Shown here piece after piece: positions 3,846-48,669 of a stretch of DNA of 64,000 bases. This DNA is from a phage. The stretch lies in the NCBI GenBank assembly GCA_036439915.1, contig GCA_036439915.1_3065.1. One strand, given 5' to 3'. Positions within the stretch are counted from its first letter, which is position 1; each line of letters starts with the position of its first letter. Both the position numbers and the translations under genes were made by a program. The notes under the pieces are model-generated. The model was not told the DNA's origin. It did not search any database and was given only the letters and a program-made list of their open reading frames with translations.

Positions 3846-4595
3846 ATGGCAAACATTATTCGTTGTAAATTACCAGATGGTGTTCATCGTTTTAAACCAT
3901 TTACGGTAGAAGATTATCGAGATTTTTTGTTAGTTCGAAACGATATAGAACATCGGTCACCACAAGAACAAAAAGAAATAATTGCTGATTTAATTGCCGA
4001 TTATTTTGGAGACTATCCGAAGACTTGGCAACCATTTATATTTTTGCAGGTATTTGTAGGATCAATAGGTAAAACTAAAGTACCGGTCACATTTGTATGT
4101 CCAAAATGTAAAAAAGAAAAGACAGTTCCATTTGAAATATATCAAAAAGAATTAAAGGAACCTGTTTTCGATGTAGCTAATGTTAAAATTAAATTAAAGT
4201 TTCCTTCTGAGTTTTATGAAAATAAAGCAAAGATGATTACTGAAAATATTCATTCTGTTCAAGTAGATGAAACATGGTATGATTGGAAGGAAATTAGTGA
4301 ATCAAGTCAAATAGAACTTGTTGATGCCATCGAGATAGAAACATTAGAAAAAATTCTCGATGCATTGAATCCTATTAATTTAACGCTACATATGTCCTGC
4401 TGTGATAAGTATGTAAAAAAATACACTGATATAGTAGATGTGTTTAAGCTATTAGTTAACCCAGATGAAATATTTACTTTTTATCAAATTAATCACACAC
4501 TCGTAAAAAGTAATTATAGCTTAAATTCAATAATGAAAATGATTCCTGCCGAGCGCGGATTCGTATTAAAACTGATTGAGAAGGATAAACAATAA
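3846..4595 (+). CDS. 51: baseplate hub assembly catalyst gp51
   Basis: 249-aa ORF; T4 synteny and length. Confidence 0.85.
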
Positions 4596-5770
4596 TGAGT
4601 ATGTTGCAACGCCCTGGATATCCAAATCTCAGCGTTAAATTATTTGATAGCTACGACGCTTGGAGTAATAATAGATTTGTTGAATTAGCTGCTACTATTA
4701 CCACATTAACTATGCGGGATTCTCTTTATGGCCGAAATGAAGGAATGCTGCAGTTTTATGATTCTAAAAACATCCATACAAAAATGGATGGAAACGAAAT
4801 AATTCAGATTTCTGTAGCTAATGCAAACGATATTAATAATGTTAAAACAAGAATTTATGGATGTAAGCATTTTTCCGTGTCAGTAGATTCAAAGGGTGAT
4901 AACATCATTGCTATTGAATTGGGAACTATTCATTCTATAGAAAATCTTAAATTTGGCAGACCGTTTTTCCCTGATGCAGGTGAATCTATAAAGGAAATGC
5001 TTGGTGTCATTTATCAAGACCGCACGCTATTAACTCCAGCGATAAATGCTATAAATGCTTATGTTCCTGATATTCCGTGGACTAGCACATTTGAAAACTA
5101 TTTGTCATATGTCAGAGAAGTTGCTCTAGCTGTAGGAAGTGACAAATTTGTATTTGTATGGCAAGACATCATGGGGGTTAACATGATGGACTATGATATG
5201 ATGATAAATCAAGAACCATATCCAATGATTGTCGGTGAGCCATCTTTAATAGGTCAATTCATCCAAGAATTAAAATATCCATTGGCATATGATTTCGTTT
5301 GGTTGACTAAATCGAATCCTCACAAACGTGACCCAATGAAAAACGCTACTATCTATGCTCATTCATTTTTAGATTCTTCATTGCCAATGATTACTACAGG
5401 AAAGGGCGAAAACTCTATTGTAGTGTCAAGGTCAGGTGCTTATTCTGAAATGACTTATAGGAATGGATATGAAGAAGCTATTCGTCTTCAAACTATGGCG
5501 CAATACGATGGCTATGCTAAATGTTCTACTGTCGGTAATTTTAACTTGACTCCTGGCGTTAAAATTATTTTTAATGATAGTAAAAACCAATTTAAAACAG
5601 AATTTTACGTTGATGAAGTTATCCATGAATTATCAAATAATAATTCAGTAACTCATCTATATATGTTCACTAATGCAACGAAACTGGAAACAATAGACCC
5701 AGTTAAGGTTAAAAATGAATTTAAATCTGATACTACCACTGAAGAAAGTAGTTCTTCCAATAAGCAATAA
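4595..5770 (+). CDS. 27: baseplate hub protein gp27
   Basis: 391-aa ORF; T4 synteny and length. Confidence 0.9.
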
Positions 5771-6248
5771 AGAAGTTTCTATTCCTAAAATGGGTCTTAA
5801 ACATTATAACATTTTAAAAGATGTTAAAGGTCCTGATGAAAATTTAAAACTTCTTATTGATTCTATTTGTCCGAATTTATCACCGGCAGAAGTTGATTTC
5901 GTTTCTATTCATTTATTGGAATTTAATGGAAAGATTAAATCTCGTAAAGAAATAGATGGTTATACTTATGACATTAATGATGTTTATGTATGCCAAAGAT
6001 TAGAATTTCAATACCAAGGAAATACATTTTATTTTAGACCTCCTGGAAAATTTGAACAATTTTTAACGGTGAGCGATATGTTATCTAAATGCTTGCTTAA
6101 GGTCAACGATGAAGTTAAAGAAATTAATTTTCTTGAGATGCCAGCATTCGTTTTAAAATGGGCAAATGATATTTTTACAACTTTAGCAATTCCTGGCCCT
6201 AATGGTCCAATAACTGGAATTGGCAATATTATTGGATTATTTGAATGA
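5715..6248 (+). CDS. 28: baseplate hub distal protein gp28
   Basis: 177-aa ORF overlapping 3' end of gene 27. Confidence 0.8.
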
Positions 6249-8017
6249 AAAAGCCACAAGAAATGCAAACGATGCGTAGAAAAGTTATTTCAGATAATAA
6301 ACCAACACAGGAAGCGGCTAAATCCGCTTCCAACACTTTATCTGGACTTAATGATATATCTACGAAATTGGATGATGCTCAAGCTGCTTCTGAATTAATA
6401 GCTCAAACTGTCGAAGAAAAATCGAATGAAATAGTTGGAGCAATTGGTAACGTAGAAAGCGCAGTGAGTGATACTACTGCTGGTTCTGAGTTAATTGCTG
6501 AAACTGTCGAAATTGGCAACAATATTAATAAAGAAATCGGTGAATCACTCGGAAGCAAATTAGATAAATTAACAAGTTTACTAGAGCAAAAAATCCAGAC
6601 AGCTGGAATTCAACAAACAGGAACTAGTTTAGCTACGGTTGAAAGCGCTATTCCCGTTAAAGTCGTTGAGGATGATACTGCTGAATCTGTGGGTCCTTTA
6701 TTACCAGCTCCTGAAGCAGTTAATAATGATCCTGACGCTGATTTTTTCCCTACCCCTCAGCCAGTTGAGCCAAAGCAAGAATCACCAGAAGAAAAACAGA
6801 AAAAAGAAGCATTTAACTTAAAATTATCTCAAGCTTTAGATAAATTAACAAAGACAGTTGATTTTGGATTTAAGAAATCCATTTCAATTACTGATAAAAT
6901 ATCAAGCATGCTATTTAAGTATACCGTCAGTGCTGCTATTGAAGCTGCTAAAATGACTGCAATGATATTGGCTGTTGTTGTTGGAATAGACCTGTTGATG
7001 GTTCATTTTAAATACTGGTCAGATAAATTTTCAAAAGCCTGGGATTTATTTAATACTGACTTTACTAAATTCTCTAGCGAAACCGGAACATGGGGCCCTT
7101 TATTACAGAGCATCTTTAGTTCTATTGATAAAATTAAGAAGCTGTGGGAAGCTGGAGATTGGGGCGGATTGACAGCAGCTATTGTAGAAGGGCTTGGAAA
7201 GGTTCTTTTTAATTTAGGAGAGCTTATTCAACTTGGAATGGCTAAATTATCTGCTGCAATTCTTCGAGTCATTCCTGGCATGAAAGACACTGCTGACGAA
7301 GTAGAAGGAAGAGCACTAGAAAATTTCCAAAACACTACAAATGCTTCTCTTAGCAAAGAAGACCAAGAAAAAGTTGCAAATTATCAATATAAAAGAATGA
7401 ATGGCGATCTTGGTCCAATAGCAAAAGGACTAGACAAAATTGCGAACTGGAAAACTCGCGCATCTAACTGGATTCGTGGTGTTGATAATAAAGAAGCACT
7501 AACGACTGATGAAGAGAGAGAAGAGGAAGAAGAAAAATTAAAGCAACTTTCTCCGGAGGAAGCTAAAATTGCTTTAATGAAAGCTAATGAAGCTCGTGCT
7601 GCTATGAATCGTTTTGATGAATACGCTAATTCGGCTGATATGAGTAAAGATTCAACAGTTAAATCAGTTGAAGCTGCCTATGAAGACCTTAAAAAACGGA
7701 TGGATGACCCGGATTTAAATAATTCACCGGCAGTTAAAAAAGAGCTTGCTGCTAGATTTTCTAAAATTGATGCTACTTATCAAGAGCTCAAGAAAAATCA
7801 GCCTAATGCCAAACCTGAAACTTCTGCTAAATCGCCAGAAGCAAAACAAGTCCAGGTTATTGAAAAGAACAAAGCACAACAAGCTCCTGTTCAACAAGCA
7901 TCTCCTTCGATCAATAATACTAATAATGTTATTAAGAAAAATACTGTCGTTCATAATATGACACCCGTAACGAGCACGACTGCTCCTGGTGTATTTGATG
8001 CGACTGGAGTTAATTAA
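6245..8017 (+). CDS. 29: baseplate hub / tail length determinator gp29
   Basis: 590-aa ORF; T4 synteny and length. Confidence 0.9.
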   Translation: MKKPQEMQTMRRKVISDNKPTQEAAKSASNTLSGLNDISTKLDDAQAASELIAQTVEEKSNEIVGAIGNVESAVSDTTAGSELIAETVEIGNNINKEIGESLGSKLDKLTSLLEQKIQTAGIQQTGTSLATVESAIPVKVVEDDTAESVGPLLPAPEAVNNDPDADFFPTPQPVEPKQESPEEKQKKEAFNLKLSQALDKLTKTVDFGFKKSISITDKISSMLFKYTVSAAIEAAKMTAMILAVVVGIDLLMVHFKYWSDKFSKAWDLFNTDFTKFSSETGTWGPLLQSIFSSIDKIKKLWEAGDWGGLTAAIVEGLGKVLFNLGELIQLGMAKLSAAILRVIPGMKDTADEVEGRALENFQNTTNASLSKEDQEKVANYQYKRMNGDLGPIAKGLDKIANWKTRASNWIRGVDNKEALTTDEEREEEEEKLKQLSPEEAKIALMKANEARAAMNRFDEYANSADMSKDSTVKSVEAAYEDLKKRMDDPDLNNSPAVKKELAARFSKIDATYQELKKNQPNAKPETSAKSPEAKQVQVIEKNKAQQAPVQQASPSINNTNNVIKKNTVVHNMTPVTSTTAPGVFDATGVN

Positions 8018-10424: not shown

Positions 10425-10466
10425 TCAGTAAGATTATTATAACACAACACGAGGGACTTGTAAACT
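10425..10466 (-). promoter_or_regulatory. T4-type early promoter (GTTTAC -35, TATAAT -10)
   Basis: minus strand reads GTTTACAAGTCCCTCGTGTTGTGTTATAAT; near-identical copy at 26220-26260. Confidence 0.6.
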
Positions 10467-12522
10467 ACATTTTGAACTTTTTAGACATTCCGTTGATATT
10501 AACCAAAGAAGCCAAGATTTGAGAAACTTCGTTTTCCTCTTCTTTTGATTCTTCTACAAGGAATTGATTAAATCCAGCCATTGGACGAACTTCACCAGTT
10601 TCCATTAGATGGTCGCCATCATATACCGATTCTTCTAATTGTTCAGAAGGAGGAACGATTGTGCCTTCGATTAGATACTTGTTATAAGCAGTTTCTTTCA
10701 TCATGTACGTACTCACTTTATTAATCTTCAGCAAAATTCCACGCGGTAGAATAACTTCAGCTTCTGATGGAAATCCTGATAAATGTCCTGGAACGATAAC
10801 TTTGATTCGCTCAGCTCCTTTAATTACCATACCCACGCTAGTTTCAGCATCTTCATTGGCATACGCAGAATGACTACCCATATGCATTAAATCTTCAGCG
10901 TCAACAGAACCTTCTCCTTCACCAGAAAATACTGCACTGGAATCATCTAGGGCCATATAGTTTTTACCATACTCACCGAAGATATTTGGTTTAAGCGATG
11001 TGGATACGAAGTTCTTGAAATAGAACATTTTATTTTCAATATTATGACGTAAAGTTTTAAAGGTAACTTCTTGGCCACGGTAAAGCGTAGTTCCTGGAGG
11101 AAGAACTGATCCTTTGGCAAAAGCAGAATCCATCGTCTCGATGTGTTTAATAGCTCGTTCCATATATTCTTCACGGGTAGAATCCGGTTTACCTAAAAGG
11201 AACGAGTTCATTTCAACATATGAATCTGCACAATAATCTTCAATTACATCAGACTCAGCCTGAGTTAATCCTTTTGGGGGTACTTCAGTACTTGCATATT
11301 CATACGCTTGAGAAGCAGACTCATTAATCAATTTATAAACGCCATTCATGACAAATTGAATAATAGCTACCTTTTCATCTGGCGTGGCTTTAGAACCTTT
11401 AACTAAATCATTGACAATTTTCTTAATAACATCAAAGCTATTAGAAATATTAATGTCAGCAAGATCACTTAAAATTTTATCAGTTTTATAATCAAAAAAT
11501 TCTTTATTCTTTAAATATTCTTGAGAACCTTGATATGATATATCGCTCTGTAACTTGATAGATGGATCACGTAAACGCGCATGAGCCAATGCAATATGAT
11601 TTCGGAAGCTTTCTAATTCATAATCACTAGATTTAAAACGGGAAGCACTTCTCATACCACCGATAGCTCCTTTGCTGAAGTTTGAACCAACCTGAATAAC
11701 GCCGGAGTTCATTGGTCCTTCTGCTTTATATACCGGAACTTTAGATTCAAACTCTTGGTATTTCTTAGCAGCGAAGCTATCACCCTGAAGCGAAGCATCG
11801 ACAGTAGAATATTGAGCTTGTGCTGCTAATCGACGACTAATTTTAGTTTTCTGAATAACAGCTTGATCCGTGCGCTTATCATTTTCTAAAGCAATAGAAG
11901 CGGCAACAGCGACAGCTTTAGGAACAGCATTACCTGTTTTAACATCTACATAAACATCACCAACCTTTGATTCAACTTTTGTGAATAACTCAGTTGAAAT
12001 AGGAGGTACACCTGGAATGTCTTCTAAATTGGCATTTTTACGGTAAACCATAATATATGCATATTTCTTATCATAGTCCCAGATTTCTTTTAAAAGAACA
12101 TATCGACCTGCTCCTTTAGTACGTACTAAACGGTCAGCAATAACTTGAATTTGTCGAGCTGCGCCATTTGTTTTACTCTTTAGTACGCGGAATAAGCATG
12201 CGTCAATTTTGTACTGTTTCATTGTCTGAAGAGCAGTATCAAAAACCGCATTAATGGCACCAATTGGATTTCCACCCAAGTTTTTAAGTTTAACTAATGA
12301 TAGTTTCTCATTGACACCTATCATTACGATATGCATCATTTTATCGCCTGGCTTAACGTTTTTGTTTGTATCACCGCCAGAGGTGTATGTACAAAATCTA
12401 AATCCAGGAAGCACGCTTTCTTCACCTGCTTGAATAGCAAAAATTTGAGGTATTTTATGCTTAGGATTTAAGTTAACAACCGGCGCCGAAGCGCCGTCAA
12501 ATAATTCTGTAATAAGTTCCAT
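10465..12522 (-). CDS. Alt-like ADP-ribosyltransferase, second paralog
   Basis: 685-aa ORF; N-terminal ~230 aa closely similar to adjacent Alt; R (LYRG), STS (FVSTSL) and ExE (SEAEV) motifs. Confidence 0.85.
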   Translation of the reverse strand: MELITELFDGASAPVVNLNPKHKIPQIFAIQAGEESVLPGFRFCTYTSGGDTNKNVKPGDKMMHIVMIGVNEKLSLVKLKNLGGNPIGAINAVFDTALQTMKQYKIDACLFRVLKSKTNGAARQIQVIADRLVRTKGAGRYVLLKEIWDYDKKYAYIMVYRKNANLEDIPGVPPISTELFTKVESKVGDVYVDVKTGNAVPKAVAVAASIALENDKRTDQAVIQKTKISRRLAAQAQYSTVDASLQGDSFAAKKYQEFESKVPVYKAEGPMNSGVIQVGSNFSKGAIGGMRSASRFKSSDYELESFRNHIALAHARLRDPSIKLQSDISYQGSQEYLKNKEFFDYKTDKILSDLADINISNSFDVIKKIVNDLVKGSKATPDEKVAIIQFVMNGVYKLINESASQAYEYASTEVPPKGLTQAESDVIEDYCADSYVEMNSFLLGKPDSTREEYMERAIKHIETMDSAFAKGSVLPPGTTLYRGQEVTFKTLRHNIENKMFYFKNFVSTSLKPNIFGEYGKNYMALDDSSAVFSGEGEGSVDAEDLMHMGSHSAYANEDAETSVGMVIKGAERIKVIVPGHLSGFPSEAEVILPRGILLKINKVSTYMMKETAYNKYLIEGTIVPPSEQLEESVYDGDHLMETGEVRPMAGFNQFLVEESKEEENEVSQILASLVNINGMSKKFKM

Positions 12523-12525
12523 GAT

Positions 12526-14622
12526 TTATCCTTGAACGAACTTGTAAGGCATGTTTGTAATATCTATGCAAGACGCAATAATTCCGAGAGATGATTCTGC
12601 TTTCTGTTTAACATTTGATGAAACAAATGATGCAAAGTCAACTCTGTCTTCTATTTCAATATCATCTGTCATTGCAACTACTTCACCAGTTTCCATTAGA
12701 CGGTCACCGTCATAAATTACTGATTCGGTGAGTTCTTCCGTAGTCATAACTTCAGTTTGAATGAGTTTTGTATTATTAGATGTTGTTCCGTCATTATTAG
12801 AAGCATCAGTTATTTTATTAACTTTGACCATCAATCCGCGTGGTAGAATTACTTCAGCTTCTGTTGCTATTCCGAGACTTCCTGGATATACAACATTAAC
12901 TTTATGAGCTCCATCAATTGCCCATCCTATTTGAACTTTAACGTATTCAGGATTTTCTTTATACGCTCTTATTTCGTTTGGATTAATAGTTATTCCTTCT
13001 TCATTTTTATCAACTGTTAATTCATTACGAGCTTCTGGTTCTAAAAGACCGATACCAGCATGTGTAATTCCAAAACGTCCAAAAATGATAGGAGTTAAAG
13101 AAGTAGATACAAAATTTCTGAAATAGAACACTTTATTTTTAACTAGCGCTTCGTATATAGGAGCAGTCATACTTTGAGCACGATAAACTGTAATGCCTTC
13201 TGGTATACGGTCACCATTTTCAAAAGCTGAATCTAAATTATTTATCGCAGATTCAATTTCTTTTTCACTCATTACATCATATCGTTCTGGATTGTAACGA
13301 CCCAAAAGAAGATTATTGATGTCAGTATATCCTGAACCACAATACTCTCTAATGCCGCGCTTTTGTGATGGAGTATATTTAGAACCATCACGGGCAATAG
13401 TAATATCAATCATTGGACCTGCACCAATTCCAGAAAAGCTATAAATCATTCGTTTGAGGAATTTAGTTTTTGCTGCGTTCCAGGAATTTTTAGTTATTTC
13501 TTCCCAGACTTCATCTGACTGCCCTTTACGGGTTTTATTATGTTTATCAAGCCAATTATCTTTATATTCTTCAAAGAATTTATTAATAGCTGCTGCATAC
13601 TTCTCTAAACATTTTATTGAAGTGGTTGGTTCATTTTTAATCGCATTGAGAATTACATCTTTAATTTTTTCAGAAACTTCATTAACCTCACTTTTTGAAA
13701 AGAATTTATAGTCATAGTGAAGTTCATCTGCGGTTCCTTCGGCAATAATTTTTGCTGCCTTAGTTTTAGAAGCTAATGAATTAATTCCAAGCTTCATTTC
13801 TTCTGCTTCGGGAATTAAAGGAGCTGTAGCAGGTTTATTGAAATTAGCTGCGGTAGATTCATATTTCTGGAATAATTCGCTTTCAAATCTAGAAGATTCT
13901 AATGACTGACTTTGCGCAATTGCTCTACGGGAAATTTTAACTTTAACGATTACAGCTTGGTCAGAACGTTTATCATTTTCTTGCGCAATAGATGCAGCAA
14001 TTGCCTCATTTTTAGTTACTTGAGCTCCAGTATCTTTATTGATATAAACATCGCCGACTTTCGATTCAACTTTAGTAAAGAGCTCGGTACTAATTTCCGG
14101 AACTCCTGGAATGTCTTCTAGTGATACATTTTTGCGATGTATAAGAATATATGCATACTTTTTATCATAATCCCAGAGTTCCTTAAGAAGGACGTATCTT
14201 CCACCTGAACGACTACGGATAAGTCTATCAGCAATAACTTGAATTTGTCGAGCTTGACCAGCAGTTTTAGACTTAAGAATACGGAGCATACAGGCATCAA
14301 TTTTATACTGACGCATCGTCTGCATTGCAACAGTAAAAACTGAATTGATGTAATTAATTGGGCTTGGACCGAGACCTTTTAATTTAGCAATTGAACCTTT
14401 AGCAGTTAATGTAAAAGGAACAATATGCATCATTTTATCGCCCATTTTTAAATCGCGATTAGTATCACCTCCAGATGTATAGGTACATAAACGAAAGCCT
14501 GGTTGTTCAATTGCGTCATCAACGTGAACTGAAAAAATTTGTGGTATTTTCTTCTTTGGATTTAAGTTTGTAATCGGAAGAGTAGTATCTTCGTCAAATA
14601 ATTCTGTAATAAGTTCCATCAT
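12526..14622 (-). CDS. alt: Alt ADP-ribosyltransferase (virion-packaged, modifies host RNA polymerase)
   Basis: 698-aa ORF adjacent to ligase as in T4; R (VYRAQ), STS (FVSTSL), ExE (TEAEV) motifs. Confidence 0.9.
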   Translation of the reverse strand: MMELITELFDEDTTLPITNLNPKKKIPQIFSVHVDDAIEQPGFRLCTYTSGGDTNRDLKMGDKMMHIVPFTLTAKGSIAKLKGLGPSPINYINSVFTVAMQTMRQYKIDACMLRILKSKTAGQARQIQVIADRLIRSRSGGRYVLLKELWDYDKKYAYILIHRKNVSLEDIPGVPEISTELFTKVESKVGDVYINKDTGAQVTKNEAIAASIAQENDKRSDQAVIVKVKISRRAIAQSQSLESSRFESELFQKYESTAANFNKPATAPLIPEAEEMKLGINSLASKTKAAKIIAEGTADELHYDYKFFSKSEVNEVSEKIKDVILNAIKNEPTTSIKCLEKYAAAINKFFEEYKDNWLDKHNKTRKGQSDEVWEEITKNSWNAAKTKFLKRMIYSFSGIGAGPMIDITIARDGSKYTPSQKRGIREYCGSGYTDINNLLLGRYNPERYDVMSEKEIESAINNLDSAFENGDRIPEGITVYRAQSMTAPIYEALVKNKVFYFRNFVSTSLTPIIFGRFGITHAGIGLLEPEARNELTVDKNEEGITINPNEIRAYKENPEYVKVQIGWAIDGAHKVNVVYPGSLGIATEAEVILPRGLMVKVNKITDASNNDGTTSNNTKLIQTEVMTTEELTESVIYDGDRLMETGEVVAMTDDIEIEDRVDFASFVSSNVKQKAESSLGIIASCIDITNMPYKFVQG

Positions 14623-22142: not shown

Positions 22143-22375
22143 AGTACGCCATACACCCTTTGTGCTTCAACTAATCCATCAAAATCTAATTTAAGATGCG
22201 ATATTTGATCGCCATCACCTGGATTCACAATTACTAATACTGAACGAGGAGTTTCGGTAATAACACGAACCGATGTTTCAGGAAATCGTTCAGAAATCCT
22301 ATTTACTAATTCCTGCGCAAATAGTTTAACTTTTTCTTGGAATTCTTTAACAGTAATTGGTTTTTCACTTAGCAT
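22139..22375 (-). CDS. hypothetical protein (cd.2 position)
   Basis: 78-aa ORF. Confidence 0.55.
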   Translation of the reverse strand: MLSEKPITVKEFQEKVKLFAQELVNRISERFPETSVRVITETPRSVLVIVNPGDGDQISHLKLDFDGLVEAQRVYGVL

Positions 22376-22896
22376 GTTGATCCCAGCTCCTTACTTTCAA
22401 CGTTTTTAACTAATTTGACAGAAACTAATTCAGCATCTTGGGTAATCATTACCGGACCTTCTTCATACTCTTCAAGATATTCTAGAGCTTTCTTTTTAGC
22501 TTCTTCCTTCGTATCAGTTTGAGCATAGATATAGAACATACAACCAGTAATACCTACTACTTTCCACTTAATTTCTTTATCAGTTTTAATTTCAAATTTA
22601 CTTACAGAATCATCTTTTTGAACTTCTTCGAAAAAAGAATATTCTAACATATAAGCAATTGAAAATAACGGGCTAACTTTATAGGATTCACCCATTACAT
22701 CAACAGCTTTATACCAGCAGTCATCAATTTCGCGTTTAATGCTAATAACATTTTTCGCAGGGTCAATTTTTACTTTAAATGAATTTTCCCCAATAAACTG
22801 GGCAATTCGTTTATTAGCCCCGCAAGTTTCATTAAAAATATCTTTATATCCAGCTTTAAAGCGATAAACCTTATCTTCTTCAAACCATTCGCTCAT
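22369..22896 (-). CDS. hypothetical protein (cd.3 position)
   Basis: 175-aa ORF. Confidence 0.6.
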   Translation of the reverse strand: MSEWFEEDKVYRFKAGYKDIFNETCGANKRIAQFIGENSFKVKIDPAKNVISIKREIDDCWYKAVDVMGESYKVSPLFSIAYMLEYSFFEEVQKDDSVSKFEIKTDKEIKWKVVGITGCMFYIYAQTDTKEEAKKKALEYLEEYEEGPVMITQDAELVSVKLVKNVESKELGSTC

Positions 22897-23437: not shown

Positions 23438-24827
<1,390 letters not shown>

Positions 24828-24831
<4 letters not shown>

Positions 24832-26262: not shown

Positions 26263-27850
<1,588 letters not shown>

Positions 27851-27858
27851 AATAAAAT

Positions 27859-27872
27859 GGGCCTTGCGGCCC
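27859..27872 (-). promoter_or_regulatory. GCAA-tetraloop hairpin between nrdB stop and denA start
   Basis: gggcc-gcaa-ggccc 8 nt upstream of denA AUG; only SD-like AAGGAG lies 5' of the hairpin. Confidence 0.5.
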
Positions 27873-27877
27873 ACTCC

Positions 27878-29056
27878 TTAAAAGTATTTTTTAAAACTCA
27901 TCATAACTTTATCATCAACATCATTATCAATCTGTGCAACAAGATAAGATGACAGTTCTACTTCTTGTGGCGCGGATTGAACATTATCAGAATTAAGGTA
28001 TTCACGAATCCAAGGATATGGATGTTTAACCGGAGCATCGGTAATTGGGCATGGAAGACCACACTGTTTCATACGAGATACAGTTAAATAATCAATAAAG
28101 CTCCACATGCTATTTGTATTTAATCCAGGAACATCGCCATCTTTAAATAAATGAACTGCCCAATCTTTTTCTTGGCGGTTAACTTCCATGAAAATATCAA
28201 CTGCTTCTTGTTCACACTCTTGAGCAATTTTAACCCATTCATCACCATCAGTGCCAAGTTGAAGTTGACGAATAATATACTGGGTGCCTTTAAGGTGAAG
28301 CTGCTCATCACGTGCAATGAACTTCATAATCTTCGCATTACCTTCCATGATTTCCATATTTTTATGGAAGTTGAAAGTACATGCAAAGGATACATAAAAA
28401 CGAATAGCTTCCAGGGCATTGATAACATGAAGGCAGAGATAAAGCGACTTCATCAATGCATATTTACATTCTTCCACATGCATAAGACTATTTGAATATG
28501 CATCTAAATCATATTCATTTTCGGAAAAACATTTAAAAATTTCTTTTGCATTTTCCCATTCGCGCGTCTTAACCAGAACATCATCATAATAACGACCAAT
28601 AGATTCAGCACGTTTCATGATAGCTTTATCTAATACAATCTCATCAAATACCTTTGACGGATCAGTATAAAGATTTCGCATAATATGAGTGTATGAACGA
28701 CTGTGAATAGTTTCACTAAAAGTCCATGTAGCAACCCATGTATCAAGACTTGGGTCTGAAATTAACGACATAAGTACAGCAGACGGTGCACGACCCTGAA
28801 TGCTATCTAGAAGTGATTGATACTTCAGGTTATTAGTAAAAATATCTTGCTGATATTGAGGAAGCTTGTTAAATTGCGCAGCATCCATCATTAAGTTTAC
28901 TTCTTCAGGACGCCAGAAAAATGACAATTGCTTTTCGGTTAAATCTTCAAAAACTTTATGACGTTGAATATCATAACGCGCAATACCAAGACCTGAACCG
29001 AAGAACATAGGTTCTTTTAAAACATCAACTGGATTTGTATTAAAAACTGTGCTCAT
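27878..29056 (-). CDS. nrdB: ribonucleotide reductase beta subunit, intron-less
   Basis: contiguous 392-aa ORF recognised as T4 NrdB. Confidence 0.93.
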   Translation of the reverse strand: MSTVFNTNPVDVLKEPMFFGSGLGIARYDIQRHKVFEDLTEKQLSFFWRPEEVNLMMDAAQFNKLPQYQQDIFTNNLKYQSLLDSIQGRAPSAVLMSLISDPSLDTWVATWTFSETIHSRSYTHIMRNLYTDPSKVFDEIVLDKAIMKRAESIGRYYDDVLVKTREWENAKEIFKCFSENEYDLDAYSNSLMHVEECKYALMKSLYLCLHVINALEAIRFYVSFACTFNFHKNMEIMEGNAKIMKFIARDEQLHLKGTQYIIRQLQLGTDGDEWVKIAQECEQEAVDIFMEVNRQEKDWAVHLFKDGDVPGLNTNSMWSFIDYLTVSRMKQCGLPCPITDAPVKHPYPWIREYLNSDNVQSAPQEVELSSYLVAQIDNDVDDKVMMSFKKYF

Positions 29057-29107
29057 AAATTTTCCGCTTAGTTAATAGTTGGTGACTCGTCCGTGAGTCA
29101 AATTATA

Positions 29108-31372
29108 TCATAATTTACAGGATGAACAATCTTCAGCTTTTGGAGTTTCTATTTCATAATCATCAGTACCAGAACCGTCACGGGTATTATGATAATAGAA
29201 ATTTTTTCCGCCAAAATACCAAAAATACAAAAGGTCATCAATCATTATTGACATTGGAACCTTTCCTTTTGGAAAAATCTGTGGGTCATAATATGTATTC
29301 GCCGAAGCTGATTGACAAACCCATTTCAGCATAATAGCTACCTGCGTAAGATAAGGTTTATTACCTTTCTTAGCTAATTTCCATGTATAATCATAAAGGT
29401 CTATGTTATGCTCAATATTGGGCACGACTTGATTAAAGGAGCCCTCTTTTGATTCTTTAACAGAGACTGGTCCACGTGGAGGCTCGATACCGTTTGTACT
29501 GTTAGAAACTTGGGAAGATGACTCACATGGCATAAGTGCTGATAATGTGCTATTACGGATGCCAAAGAGCTTAAGGTCTTCCCGCAGCGACGACCAGTCA
29601 CAAACGTATTTTGGAGCTGCGATTTGGTCAATCTTTTTATTGTACCAGTCGATAGGTAATTCGCCTCGAGACCAACGAGTGTCTGAATAATATTCACAAG
29701 GTCCTTTTTCTTTGGCGAGTTTAATGGATGCTTTAATGAGTCCATACTGTAATCTCTCAAATAGTTCATGTGTTAAATCGTTAGCATCTTCATAAGAAGC
29801 AAAGTTACTTGCCAACCAAGCTGCATAGTTAGTAACACCTACACCGAGGTTACGACGCTTTTTAGCTTTTTCTGCTTCAGGAACTGGATATCCTTGGTAA
29901 TCCAAAAGATTATCAAGAGCACGAACCTGGACTTCTGCCAATTCATTAATTTTATCTTGGTCTTGCCAGTCAAAATTATCCAGTACGAATGCAGAGAGAG
30001 TACACAATCCAATTTCAGCATCAGGACTATTCACATCATTTGTTGGAATAGCAATTTCACAGCACAAGTTACTCTGACGAATAGGTGCCTTTTCACGAAT
30101 AAACGGAGTATAGTTATTCGTATTATCAATGAACTGTACATAAATCCTTGCTGTTCCTGAGCGTTCAGTCATGAGCAATTCAAATAGTTCACGAGCTTTA
30201 ATACGCTTTTTACGAATATTAGGGTCTTTTTCTGCGGCTTCATACAATTCACGGAAACGGTCTTGGTCTTTAAAATAAGAATAATAAAGCTCTCCGCCCA
30301 TTTCATGGGGACTGAACAAAGTAATGTAATCGTTCTTTCCGAATCGTTCCATCATCAAATCATTCAGCTGAACACCATAATCCATATGACGAATGCGGTT
30401 TTCTTCTACGCCTTTGTTATTTTTCAAAACAAGAAGATTTTCAACTTCCAAATGCCAAATAGGATAATAAGCAGTAGCAGCGCCGCCACGAATTCCACCC
30501 TGTGAGCATGATTTAACAGCAGTCTGAAAATGTTTCCAAAAAGGAATAACACCAGTATGGCGTACTTCACCCATGCCAATCTTAGAACCTTCAGCACGAA
30601 TCATACCAACGTTAATACCAATTCCAGCGCGTTTAGAGATATATTCAACAATTGAAGCGGAAGCCTTATTGATAGACTTTAATGAATCACCTGCCTCAAT
30701 AACAACGCATGAACTAAACTGCCGGGTTGGAGTACGGCAACCAGCCATAATAGGAGTTGGCAATGAAATCTGTCGAGTAGATACTGCTTCATAAAAACGG
30801 ATAACGTGTTTTAATCTATCAACAGGTTCATCTTGATGCAATGCCATTCCAATAGTCATAAATGCAAACTGTGGAGTTTCATAAATTTGACCAGTGGTTT
30901 TATCTTTAACTAGATATTTTTCTTTTAATTGCATCGCCCCGGAATAAGTAAATTCCATATCCCGCTCGTGCTTAATTTTTGATTCTAAAAATGTAATTTC
31001 TTCTGCAGAATATTTTGACAACAATTCAGGGTCGTATTTACCTTCATTTACACAGTAAGAAATATGGTCAATAAATGAACGTGGTTCATACTGCCCATAA
31101 ACATGCTTACGAAGAGCAAACATTAAACAGCGTGCAGCTACATATTGATAATCAGGTTCTTCAACCGAAATAGAATTCGCAGCGGCCTTAATGACAATAG
31201 TCTGAATATCATCAGTTGTCATTCCATCACGGAGATATGATTTAATATTTTCATATAATTCATAAGGATCTACAGATGTTCCTTCAGCTGCCCAAGATAA
31301 AACTTTAATAATTTTTTGCGGGTCAAAGCTCTGAGAAACACCACTACTTTTGATAACATTAATTAATTGCAT
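29108..31372 (-). CDS. nrdA: ribonucleotide reductase alpha subunit
   Basis: 754-aa ORF recognised as T4 NrdA. Confidence 0.95.
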   Translation of the reverse strand: MQLINVIKSSGVSQSFDPQKIIKVLSWAAEGTSVDPYELYENIKSYLRDGMTTDDIQTIVIKAAANSISVEEPDYQYVAARCLMFALRKHVYGQYEPRSFIDHISYCVNEGKYDPELLSKYSAEEITFLESKIKHERDMEFTYSGAMQLKEKYLVKDKTTGQIYETPQFAFMTIGMALHQDEPVDRLKHVIRFYEAVSTRQISLPTPIMAGCRTPTRQFSSCVVIEAGDSLKSINKASASIVEYISKRAGIGINVGMIRAEGSKIGMGEVRHTGVIPFWKHFQTAVKSCSQGGIRGGAATAYYPIWHLEVENLLVLKNNKGVEENRIRHMDYGVQLNDLMMERFGKNDYITLFSPHEMGGELYYSYFKDQDRFRELYEAAEKDPNIRKKRIKARELFELLMTERSGTARIYVQFIDNTNNYTPFIREKAPIRQSNLCCEIAIPTNDVNSPDAEIGLCTLSAFVLDNFDWQDQDKINELAEVQVRALDNLLDYQGYPVPEAEKAKKRRNLGVGVTNYAAWLASNFASYEDANDLTHELFERLQYGLIKASIKLAKEKGPCEYYSDTRWSRGELPIDWYNKKIDQIAAPKYVCDWSSLREDLKLFGIRNSTLSALMPCESSSQVSNSTNGIEPPRGPVSVKESKEGSFNQVVPNIEHNIDLYDYTWKLAKKGNKPYLTQVAIMLKWVCQSASANTYYDPQIFPKGKVPMSIMIDDLLYFWYFGGKNFYYHNTRDGSGTDDYEIETPKAEDCSSCKL

Positions 31373-31689
31373 AAGTCCTCAACTTGAAAATCGTCTTTAA
31401 ACAATCGGTTAACTATATGAGCTATTATATCACCATGACACGGCTTTGGTTTACATGTGCATCCTAGCCTCATTCCACGTAAAGGCTCTAAATGTGCTTT
31501 AGTTATTTCTCCGGATTTAATTCGACGTATAAAATCTTTTTTGAATAATTCAATGGCAGCCTCCCGGCTGCCAGCATCTTTACCGACGTAATTTCCCCAA
31601 AATGTACCACGGTGAATATTAACATCAAAGTCGGATTTATATTTATTCACTACCCGGCATAGACTGCCCGCGCGGTTGTAGGTGTTCAT
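31363..31689 (-). CDS. hypothetical protein (nrdA.1 position)
   Basis: 108-aa ORF. Confidence 0.65.
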
Positions 31690-31918
31690 ATTGTTCTTCC
31701 GTTAAAACAGTAATATCGTAGTAACAGTCAGAAGAAGTTTTAACTGTGGAAATTTTATTATCAAAATACTCACGAGTCATTTTATGAGTATAATATTTTT
31801 TGCCATAAATGATAATAGGCTGATTTGGTCCTGGAACTTCTAACTCACTTGGATTAGGAAGTGTAAAAAGAACTACACCAGAAGTATCTTTAAATCGTAA
31901 AATCATATATCCTCGCAA
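31643..31918 (-). CDS. hypothetical protein (nrdA.2 position)
   Basis: 91-aa ORF. Confidence 0.6.
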
Positions 31919-31926
31919 TAATAAAA

Positions 31927-32787
31927 TTACACCGCCATCTTTCCTTTAATAGGAGGATGTGATTCATAGTTGTTAAGAACAAAATTATGAGGCTTTGCAA
32001 ATTGACTCAACCAAAATACCTGCGATTCTGTGTCCCATTCATCAAATTCATCTGGAAATTTTAATTGTAATTCGCATAAATCCATAGGTTCACGACATAA
32101 AATTTCTTTACATTGTTCTACGTGATTCATATAGATATGAGTATTACCACCAGAAAATATCAAATCTCCCGGAATAAGATTACACATTTTAGCTACAATA
32201 TGAACTAACGTAGCATATGATGCAATATTAAATGGAAGACCGAGGAAAACATCTACCGAACGTTGATACCACTGAAGGTCAAGGTATCCATTACGCACAT
32301 TAAACTGATAGAACATGTGACAAGGCGGTAATGCCATTTGCTTGAGTTCAGCTGGATTCCATGCTGAAACAACTTGACGTCTATCATTTGGCAGTTTTTT
32401 AATACGATCAATAACTTCTACAATTTGGTCTACACCGCCAAAATCACGCCACTGTTTTCCATAAATTGGACCAAGTTCACCGCTATGGTATCCTAAATCT
32501 TTTGCTTGATTTTCGTAATTTTCATCCCAGACTGTTTTGCCTTGAATTAATGAATCATGTTGAATTAATCGCAAATCATTTACATTTGTGCTTCCTGATA
32601 AAAACCATATTAGCTCAGCAATGCATGCATTCCAGGCGAGCTTTTTAGTTGTTACTGCAGGAAAACCTTTAGTTAAATCCCAACGCAATTTAGTACCGAA
32701 CAGAGCAATTGTTCCTGTGCCTGTTCGGTCATCAGTTTCATAACCATTTTCAAAAATGTCTTTAATTAAATCTTGGTATTGTTTCAT
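31927..32787 (-). CDS. td: thymidylate synthase, intron-less
   Basis: contiguous 286-aa ORF recognised as T4 Td. Confidence 0.95.
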
Positions 32788-32832
32788 TTAGTACCTTATA
32801 TAAATTATAATACATTTTATGAAGCTAAATAA

Positions 32833-33180
32833 TCAATACGGTTTAGCATCAAATTTTCTCTCAATTTCAGGCGTGAAATATAATTCTTTACCGCGTTTGG
32901 AAAAGCGACCAATAATATGATAATTATTCTCATCAAACGTGATATTACCAATATCCATAGCTTTCAACCAAATATCGATATTTCTATCCAGCTTTATGTC
33001 AAAATTCCAATACGGAGAACTATTACCGAAAATACTACAAGCGGATTCAGTGAAACAACTGCTATAAATCTTGTCTTTAGGAACTACTAATTGATAGACA
33101 CCTTTAATAAACTGAGGACCCTGCCACTTTGGCTGTTTCTCATCTTTTTCTAATAGAATAGGGTAATAATTAAAATTCAT
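32833..33180 (-). CDS. hypothetical protein inserted between frd and td
   Basis: 115-aa ORF in a 412-bp spacer; no recognisable motifs. Confidence 0.6.
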   Translation of the reverse strand: MNFNYYPILLEKDEKQPKWQGPQFIKGVYQLVVPKDKIYSSCFTESACSIFGNSSPYWNFDIKLDRNIDIWLKAMDIGNITFDENNYHIIGRFSKRGKELYFTPEIERKFDAKPY

Positions 33181-33199
33181 ATTTCCGCCGCGCGTTATT

Positions 33200-34026
<827 letters not shown>

Positions 34027-34037
34027 ATTATCTCCTA

Positions 34038-34370
34038 TTAAAAAGGATCAGGAACATATCCGCTAGCTTTAATCATTTTAATTAACGTTAACATTCCTTT
34101 GTTAACTGCTCGTGAGATTTCATCAAAAACTTCATCACTAAAAAGTTCTAACACGCCCTTCTGAACTTTTAATTTACAGCCAACAATTTCTTCATCGCCT
34201 ATAGTAAATTCATTACCACCAATTCCACCGAAAAACTTAATTACACCAGTTAACTGTCTTCCACGAGAATATGGGTCGTGTGATAAAGTAATATGAGTCA
34301 CCCCGGGTACAGTTTTAAATTGACAGCGAATGTTTACTTGAGCAATTCCAGTTACATGAATGTCAGACAT
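34038..34370 (-). CDS. hypothetical protein (frd.2 position)
   Basis: 110-aa ORF. Confidence 0.6.
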   Translation of the reverse strand: MSDIHVTGIAQVNIRCQFKTVPGVTHITLSHDPYSRGRQLTGVIKFFGGIGGNEFTIGDEEIVGCKLKVQKGVLELFSDEVFDEISRAVNKGMLTLIKMIKASGYVPDPF

Positions 34371-36466: not shown

Positions 36467-36565
36467 TTTTATTTCCTTTTTAATTTAATTAACAGTTGGT
36501 GCTATGACGATGTATGACCTCATAGCTGGTCAGTGAGATAATTATAATTTATTTATAATAAGCAA

Positions 36566-47864: not shown

Positions 47865-47869
47865 AATGA

Positions 47870-47883
47870 GGGGCTTCGGCCCC
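47870..47883 (+). terminator. UUCG-loop hairpin between genes 37 and 38
   Basis: ggggc-ttcg-gcccc directly before GGAGG RBS of gene 38; no T tract. Confidence 0.4.
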
Positions 47884-47895
47884 TTGGAGGTTTAT

Positions 47896-48669
47896 ATGGC
47901 AGTTGAAGGACCGTGGGTAGGATGGTCTGCGAGGGTACAAACTGGAGACCCTTGGATGGGTGGTGCCGCACAGAGATTGAGAATGGGAATTCCGTTTTGG
48001 ATGAGTAATATGATAGGTCGATCTGTTGAAGTAATTCACACGCTTGGAGCAGACCATAACTTCAATGGTCAATGGTTCCGAGATAGATGTTTTGAGGCAG
48101 GTAGTACACCTATAGTGTTTAATATCACTGGAGATTTAGTATCATATTCTAAAGATGTTCCTTTATTCTTCATGTACGGAGATACACCGAATGAATATGT
48201 TCAGTTGAATATACACGGCGTAACGATGTATGGACGTGGCGGGAATGGCGGTAGCAATAGTCCCGGATCGGCTGGGGGTCATTGTATTCAAAATGATATT
48301 GGTGGAAGACTAAGAATTAATAATGGCGGAGCTATTGCAGGCGGCGGTGGCGGCGGCGGCGGCGGTAACTACGGTAGACTATCATTTGGTGGTGGTGGTG
48401 GTCGCCCATTCGGTGCTGGCGGGTCTTCCTCTCATATGGGTGCTGGTGCAACCGCTGGCACCATTTCCGCTCCGGGTGCAGGATCTGTCGGTAAGGGGTC
48501 TCTTTGGGTATATACAGGCGGGAATGGCGGTGAAGTTGGCTCAGCAGGAGGTAGATGTAATATTCATGGGAACGGTACAGAATATAACGGTGGTGCTGCT
48601 GGTTATGCCGTCATAGGGTCTACACCGACATGGCAAAACGTTGGAGCAATATATGGTCCAAGAGTATAA
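47896..48669 (+). CDS. 38: T2-type receptor-recognising adhesin gp38
   Basis: 257 aa from MAVEGPW; conserved N-terminus, glycine-rich motifs, poly-Gly run. Confidence 0.85.

Follow-up and report, generated by a model that had tools for sequence, protein, structure and literature searches.

Why do the genes nrdB, nrdA and td of one T-even phage lack the introns and the homing endonuclease gene that phage T4 carries at the same places, and are these sites unoccupied, secondarily vacated or resistant to invasion? We addressed this question for contig GCA_036439915.1_3065.1 of the phage assembly GCA_036439915.1, of which the whole analysed stretch of 64,000 nucleotides (nt) is called the window throughout; it comes from a T-even (Tequatrovirus) genome. 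All genes between 26 and 34 kb of the window are encoded by the minus strand, and their order is rnlA, denA, nrdB, nrdA, nrdA.1, nrdA.2, td, an open reading frame (ORF) of 115 amino acids (aa), and frd. An earlier note, made from the sequence of positions 27878-32787, had claimed that the T4 group I introns are absent from nrdB and td, that mobE is missing from between nrdA and nrdB, and that the region is consequently naive to invasion, free of endonucleases and distinct from T4; as a check it had proposed an alignment of nrdB, td and the nrdA-nrdB junction with T4. The analysis makes it very likely that the window carries unoccupied, "empty-site" alleles of nrdB, nrdA and td at a known T-even hotspot for the insertion of homing endonucleases and introns, in the arrangement of phage T2.

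The absence of the elements can be read directly from the ORFs and alignments, which made a chance test unnecessary. As the earlier note had stated, nrdB (392 aa) and td (286 aa) are each a single uninterrupted ORF, and both are matched by their Pfam families (Table 1). A BLASTN comparison of the window with T4 (NC_000866) gave colinear blocks separated by three clean gaps in which only T4 has sequence: 1017 nt corresponding to the td intron with I-TevI, 600 nt corresponding to the nrdB intron with I-TevIII (598 nt once the splice sites are placed), and 700 nt corresponding to mobE and nrdB.1 between nrdA and nrdB. All three gaps coincide exactly with the known insertion points of the introns and of mobE, the window sequence is continuous across each site and exactly colinear with the T4 exons, and no remnant of an intron or of mobE was found at any of the junctions when window and T4 were read against each other. 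In the T4 record, td and nrdB each consist of two joined pieces, with I-TevI inside the former and the defective I-TevIII inside the latter, whereas neither td nor nrdB of the window contains a frame-interrupting non-coding insertion at the known sites, as a group I intron would be. Outside the variable cassettes described below, the core genes of T4 are ~93-97% identical to those of the window. The search for a hidden intron or homing endonuclease ORF within 27878-32787, by Pfam and alignment on both strands, likewise returned nothing. A GIY-YIG ORF beside nrdB was considered as a homing endonuclease and rejected: It is the resident denA, which occupies the same position in T4 and T2. No other ORF on either strand within 27878-32787 has a Pfam endonuclease domain.

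The earlier note had placed mobE of T4 between nrdA and nrdB, which agrees with the T4 record and the literature (PMC2790892), and its estimate of about 50 bp for the corresponding spacer of the window becomes 51 bp on measurement. RB51, AugustSocin and REP2 have exactly the spacer sequence of the window, and the spacer length is 51 bp in 11 of 11 aligned phages that lack mobE. The promoter of nrdB probably lies at the very end of nrdA or within the spacer. With regard to mobE itself, phage T6 carries at this locus (T6 locus 5997-6638) a single 213-aa ORF with HNH and NUMOD3 matches, which corresponds to mobE (141 aa, HNH) plus nrdB.1 (83 aa, NUMOD3) of T4 (T4 locus 5717-6417); the mobE gene thus appears to be split in the T4 reference. 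A further unoccupied site lies within nrdA: In phages REP2 and REP3 an insertion of ~913 nt splits nrdA near nt 1350 into two ORFs and encodes a 236-aa protein with HNH and I-HmuI-like NUMOD matches (REP2 locus 4188-4898).

Such empty sites are common. We matched the 5.85-kb region 27400-33250 against a phage collection and obtained 1032 records, ~517 of them at at least 90% identity. Among the 40 best matches, 36 are single colinear pieces, with identities of up to 98.2% (JY01, wV7, RB51, RB68 and others). Most of the length of the td intron is present in 197 records, most of the nrdB intron in 118 and mobE-like DNA in at most 143, all these counts being approximate as they include duplicate and partial records. 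The 70-nt exon junction of the window td is found uninterrupted in 138 phage records, many of them 100% identical. In the phage collection the empty state is therefore the usual one, held by the majority. wV7, JY01, RB51, RB68 and AugustSocin match as colinear single pieces with 97.4-98.2% identity over 27400-33250, are free of both introns and of mobE, and have an identical empty site in td; they differ from the window by small mosaic differences, for example in RB51, which has a NrdB cassette of the T2 class.

How the sites came to be empty can be approached through the exon bases that accompany the introns. Exon 1 of td ends in CTTGGGT in four of four intron-bearing alleles (T4, T6, F25 and Isf-Pm2); in all nine intronless alleles examined, the window included, it ends in CCTCGGT or, in T2, in TCTTGGT. 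T at −6 and G at −4 relative to the insertion site are accordingly present in each of the four intron-bearing alleles and absent from the window. CTTGGGT pairs in register with bases 9-15 of the td intron (GCCUGAG), forming seven pairs with −6.4 kcal/mol, a pairing that we read from the sequence as the putative first intron helix; with the bases that the window has at −6 and −4, two of these pairs would be lost. At the nrdB site, exon 1 ends in TCTTTTGCGT in four of four intron-bearing alleles (T4, RB5, FL23 and AV118 (Mosigvirus)), all with G at −2, as opposed to TCCTTTGCAT with A at −2 in the window. The energetics of the first helix (P1) of the nrdB intron were dropped from consideration, because short hairpins fold ambiguously, and the association with G at −2 was kept by itself. 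The absence of the intron-associated bases at td −6/−4 and nrdB −2 argues against a recent precise loss of introns, that is, against the window alleles being recent precise excisions of T4-type introns.

Secondary loss is one alternative to this reading. In this scenario an ancestor held the introns and/or mobE and lost them secondarily, by precise deletion or by recombinational replacement with an intronless allele. Homing elements are generally expected to pass through cycles of gain, decay and loss, which fits this scenario, nrdB and td are mosaics with cassettes and recombination joints, so allele replacement does happen, and the replacement of a whole allele by an intronless one would be traceless; moreover, the intronless nrdB of RB51, with its T4-like exon context and G at −2, shows the possible look of a loss event. 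The window, however, has neither the exon bases that accompany the td intron nor the one that accompanies the nrdB intron, it carries the haplotype of mobE-less phages across nrdB nt 91-170, its junctions are free of remnants, and a contiguous T4-type junction of td exons 1 and 2 was found in no record of the phage collection. We consequently regard secondary loss as unlikely. The designation "naive" in the earlier note can be retained in the sense that the sites are unoccupied, have targets of the T2 type and are unlikely to be recent precise excisions; in the sense of "never invaded" it goes too far, as recombinational replacement by an intronless allele would fit too. RB51 deserves mention in its own right: Its nrdB is intronless, yet has the exon-flank polymorphisms of T4 at the insertion site, G at −2 included, which makes it a candidate for precise intron loss or, alternatively, for the allele that hosts the T4-type intron.

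The unoccupied sites also resemble the targets of the respective endonucleases. I-TevI cleavage requires the motif CNNNG. The two cuts made by the enzyme lie upstream of the insertion site, at distances of 23 and 25 nt (PMC2988022). The window td combines a contiguous exon junction with a CNNNG motif (CAACG) at −27 to −23, and in the 3' half of the homing site it is identical to T2. For MobE, nicks that depend on the enzyme map to nt 122-126 of T2 nrdB (Wilson and Edgell 2009, PMC2790892); according to the same work all phages without mobE have AAG as codon 42, and a two-part site has been proposed that consists of the polymorphic nt 114-131 and the FFWRPEE-coding block, with the region of nt 129 being read by the catalytic domain of MobE (PMC2790892). 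The window has no gene between nrdA and nrdB, AAG at codon 42, the FFWRPEE-coding block, and a T2-type sequence at nt 114-131 (TTTAACCGAAAAGCAATT versus TTTAACCGAAAAGCAGTT in T2), in which one of 18 nt differs. In an alignment of 13 phages the T2-type target block is present in all 11 that lack mobE, whereas the mobE-positive phages T4 and T6 have 12-16 substitutions within nt 96-136; over nt 91-170 the window has the mobE-less haplotype. By these features the sites look like cleavable recipients; they are unoccupied, T2-like and probably susceptible.

In this arrangement nrdB, nrdA and td are plain continuous genes that are expressed without splicing. On co-infection with a T4-like donor, the T2-like recognition sequences kept at the sites would expose nrdB to a nick by MobE near codon 42 and td to a cut by I-TevI 23-25 nt upstream of the insertion site; in the repair of the double-strand breaks, mobE and the accompanying nrdB intron, as well as the td intron together with flanking donor exon bases, would be copied into the window genome. 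Close relatives indicate that such invasion has occurred in nature: F25 and Isf-Pm2 (96.8-96.9% identical over the region, with the same Td cassette) carry the td intron with I-TevI, while REP2 and REP3 (98.1% identical) carry the HNH endonuclease gene inside nrdA, and all four share the Td cassette and the NrdB cassette class of the window. These phages represent the same alleles in naturally occurring forms with an intron or an endonuclease gene. Compared with a REP2-type allele, F25 differs on the 5' side only within td nt 528-546, which reach from where I-TevI cuts to where the intron is inserted, and this is what co-conversion leads one to expect; Isf-Pm2 differs from CM8 in td at −6 and −4 only. 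As F25 has donor bases only at td nt 528-546 and REP2 is identical to the window there, alleles of this type seem to have undergone natural invasion. That the window alleles are empty because they are uncuttable, synonymous differences near the cut sites protecting them from I-TevI and/or MobE, is for these reasons hardly credible: Relative to T4 the window td does have silent changes between cut site and insertion site (−22, −19, −6 and −4) plus three just downstream, and nt 129 of nrdB differs from T2 within the region proposed for the catalytic domain of MobE, but the CAACG motif is intact, I-TevI tolerates numerous substitutions within its target, codon 42 has the AAG found throughout the mobE-less phages, Isf-Pm2 has A at nt 129 as well, and F25 resembles a REP2-type allele plus intron, with REP2 sharing the bases of the window at td nt 528-546.

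Some points weigh against the reading of the locus as a set of empty and susceptible T2-type alleles. Full sensitivity is assumed, and the window td differs from both T2 and T4 at −22 and −19, directly beside the I-TevI cut site, just as nrdB differs from T2 at nt 129 inside the polymorphic MobE region, where the A is common to the window and Isf-Pm2. The record counts that describe the empty state as the usual one are approximate. Finally, an Rfam scan for group I introns gave no match at the locus, but likewise missed the control introns of T4 in td and nrdB at the gathering threshold; it is uninformative and was discarded as evidence. A more general observation from this control is that a negative Rfam scan at the gathering threshold, which misses both T4 group I introns, is useless for excluding ORF-containing phage introns. 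Intron absence is thus read from ORF continuity and alignment, and these are sufficient evidence for it.

Table 1. Features of the nrdB-nrdA-td locus, in window coordinates; a slash marks the insertion point within an exon context.
Feature	Position	Strand	Description
denA (endonuclease II)	27440-27874	minus	Pfam GIY-YIG, phrog_1111; relatives annotate a 411-nt gene
nrdB	27878-29056	minus	392 aa, one uninterrupted ORF; Pfam Ribonuc_red_sm over full length, E = 3e-36; colinear with T4 exon 1 plus exon 2
Empty nrdB intron insertion site	28380-28381	minus	between nrdB nt 676 and 677; exon context TCCTTTGCAT/GTACTTTC; T4 holds 598 nt there
NrdB variable cassette	28450-28567	minus	~aa 171-199; 35-52% nt identity to T2, T4 and T6; flanks 95-100% identical
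MobE target region	28926-28943	minus	nrdB nt 114-131; codon 42 = AAG at 28931-28933; FFWRPEE-coding block downstream
nrdA-nrdB spacer	29057-29107	minus	51 bp, no room for a gene; nrdA stop ends at 29108, nrdB ATG starts at 29056
Hairpin TGACTC-N6-GAGTCA	29083-29100	minus	in spacer; 6-bp stem, −7.5 kcal/mol; no T tract after it
TATAAT	29102-29107	minus	in spacer, directly after nrdA stop codon
nrdA	29108-31372	minus	754 aa, uninterrupted (2265 nt in T2); Pfam ATP-cone, Ribonuc_red_lgN, Ribonuc_red_lgC, matched over full length
Empty HNH-gene site in nrdA	~30017-30027	minus	nrdA nt ~1346-1356; occupied in REP2/REP3
nrdA.1	31363-31689	minus	DUF4326
nrdA.2	31643-31918	minus	DUF5496; the ATG start annotated in relatives gives a 264-nt gene
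td	31927-32787	minus	286 aa, one uninterrupted ORF; Pfam Thymidylat_synt, profile positions 1-266 of 266, E = 1.9e-94; colinear with T4 exons
Td C-terminal variable cassette	31982-32098	minus	~aa 231-270; 38% nt identity to T2/T4 class in td nt 721-780
Empty td intron insertion site	32238-32239	minus	between td nt 549 and 550; exon context TTTTCCTCGGT/CTTCCATTT; T4 holds 1017 nt there
CAACG (I-TevI cleavage motif)	32261-32265	minus	td nt 523-527, −27 to −23 of insertion site; placed by sequence alignment
9-bp direct repeat TAAATGAAA, right copy	32782-32790	minus	covers td start codon
115-aa ORF	32833-33180	minus	between td and frd, just outside 27878-32787; absent from T4
9-bp direct repeat TAAATGAAA, left copy	33198-33206	minus	covers frd stop codon

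The description of the neighbourhood as endonuclease-free depends on how the 115-aa ORF next to td is judged, which the earlier note had overlooked and which in one relative is labelled "putative homing endonuclease". A stretch of 404 nt between td and frd of the window is missing from T4, which lacks the ORF and in which frd and td overlap by ATGA. The ORF belongs to phrog_1928, a family of unknown function, and neither it nor any of 24 family members has a Pfam match. No nuclease motif occurs among the invariant residues of the family (Q16, W19, G27, G91, K95 and G97). In a structure model built from 24 sequences (a version built from four was discarded, with a predicted local distance difference test score, pLDDT, of 61) the protein does not appear to adopt an HNH, GIY-YIG, LAGLIDADG or PD-(D/E)xK nuclease fold, and the model matched no solved fold; in the viral structure library BFVD it matches uncharacterised proteins only. 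A profile search of 1.8 billion representatives retrieved just 23 proteins, nearly all of them standalone and ~95-116 aa long. Moreover, T2, T6, RB51 and a divergent T4-like contig (with a 63%-identical homologue) all have the ORF between frd and td, T4 being the exception, so that it lacks the sporadic distribution at varying positions that is typical of homing endonucleases. For want of a nuclease domain, motif or fold, and in view of its fixed position, we regard the endonuclease label as unsupported; the claim of an endonuclease-free neighbourhood is sound to that extent, even though an additional ORF is present. The ORF is framed by two 9-bp direct repeats: Removal of one repeat unit (416 nt) from the window yields exactly the ATGA overlap of frd and td seen in T4, and the RB51 record bears the annotation "flanked by 9 bp repeat". 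On this sequence pattern, the simplest reading would be a resident gene that was deleted in T4, and not a mobile endonuclease.

Both nrdB and td, essential genes that are otherwise nearly identical among these phages, contain a short variable cassette in which the window departs from T2 and T4. The difference in length between NrdB of the window (392 aa) and of T4 (388 aa) is due to a replaced variable segment of 29 aa versus 25 aa, which also explains why we rejected the idea that the four additional residues are an intron remnant or scar. The NrdB cassette occurs in three allelic classes, namely window/JY01/REP2, T2/RB51 and T4/T6; the class of the window is 100% identical in SfPhi01, REP3 and KMB42 and ~95% identical in the Mosigvirus phages ATK47 and Shf125875. 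The cassette presumably aligns with a surface β-hairpin of E. coli NrdB. A link between cassette class and mobE was suggested by the class shared by the mobE-positive phages T4 and T6, but was dropped, as the window class also occurs in LF82 phages with a mobE-like gene. The Td cassette class of the window is found in 157 records, among intron-free (RB51) and intron-bearing (F25, T6) alleles alike. A linkage of the NrdB and Td classes was also rejected: T6 and RB51 combine them differently. It is conceivable, if improbable, that diversifying selection acts on the NrdB and Td cassettes as surface segments, or that they are swapped as whole units; possible drivers would be a host defence that senses nucleotide-metabolism enzymes of the phage, or competition among co-infecting phages. 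It is equally conceivable that the conserved 115-aa protein is an uncharacterised partner of the enzymes of the dTMP cycle.

Elsewhere in the window, the interval between genes 32 and 59 measures only ~100 bp (36467-36565), where T4 has the GIY-YIG homing endonuclease gene segG; this is an empty endonuclease site, as in T2. Two full-length tandem alt paralogues of 685 and 698 aa, both belonging to the ADP-ribosyltransferase family phrog_802, lie at 10465-14622, whereas T4 has one alt gene and the short remnants alt.-1 and alt.-2. The ORFs at 22369-22896, 24529-24831 and 33781-34370, which are absent from T4 at these places, belong to phrog_3710 (175 aa), phrog_2364 (100 aa), phrog_3183 (81 aa) and DUF7247/phrog_3566 (110 aa), and no nuclease domain was found in any of them. 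Over window positions 1-25000 the records of the phage collection reach ~97% identity at most, and the phage is apparently a mosaic of known Tequatrovirus segments. The product of gene 38 (47866-48669) is of the T2 type, a tail-fibre adhesin of 267 aa (phrog_2056), and not an assembly chaperone of the T4 type, a further sign that the phage belongs to the T2-like group.

The empty-site arrangement is already known and not new, having been described since the late 1980s. Its value here is mainly one of annotation, in that the phage can be assigned to the T2-like majority of T-even phages, which is poor in endonucleases. If T4 infects the same cells, its sequence is predicted to replace the markers around nrdB and td, an effect known as localised marker exclusion. 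Additionally, the comparative panel is a natural illustration of co-conversion, with donor bases in a short tract at the insertion site that include the guide-pairing bases; the principle is already established for T4.

The known system that the locus resembles is T2, the classic intronless and mobE-less recipient in homing crosses of T4 with T2. T2 (AP018813) has genes of the same order and sizes, with denA, nrdB of 1179 nt (NrdB 392 aa), a 51-bp spacer, nrdA of 2265 nt, nrdA.1, nrdA.2, td of 861 nt, an ORF of 348 nt and frd. It differs from the window in its overall sequence (94.7% identity), in NrdB and Td cassettes of other allelic classes, and in a few silent positions of td 5' of the insertion site. 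The map of this region in Figure 1 of Wilson and Edgell 2009, drawn for T4 versus T2, displays the same contrast of two introns and a T4-specific mobE insertion (PMC2790892), and T4 with its 15 endonuclease genes has been called "the outlier" (PMC2988022). That the region separates the phage from T4, as the earlier note put it, is true but trivial: The layout is identical to that of T2, and it is T4 that stands apart.

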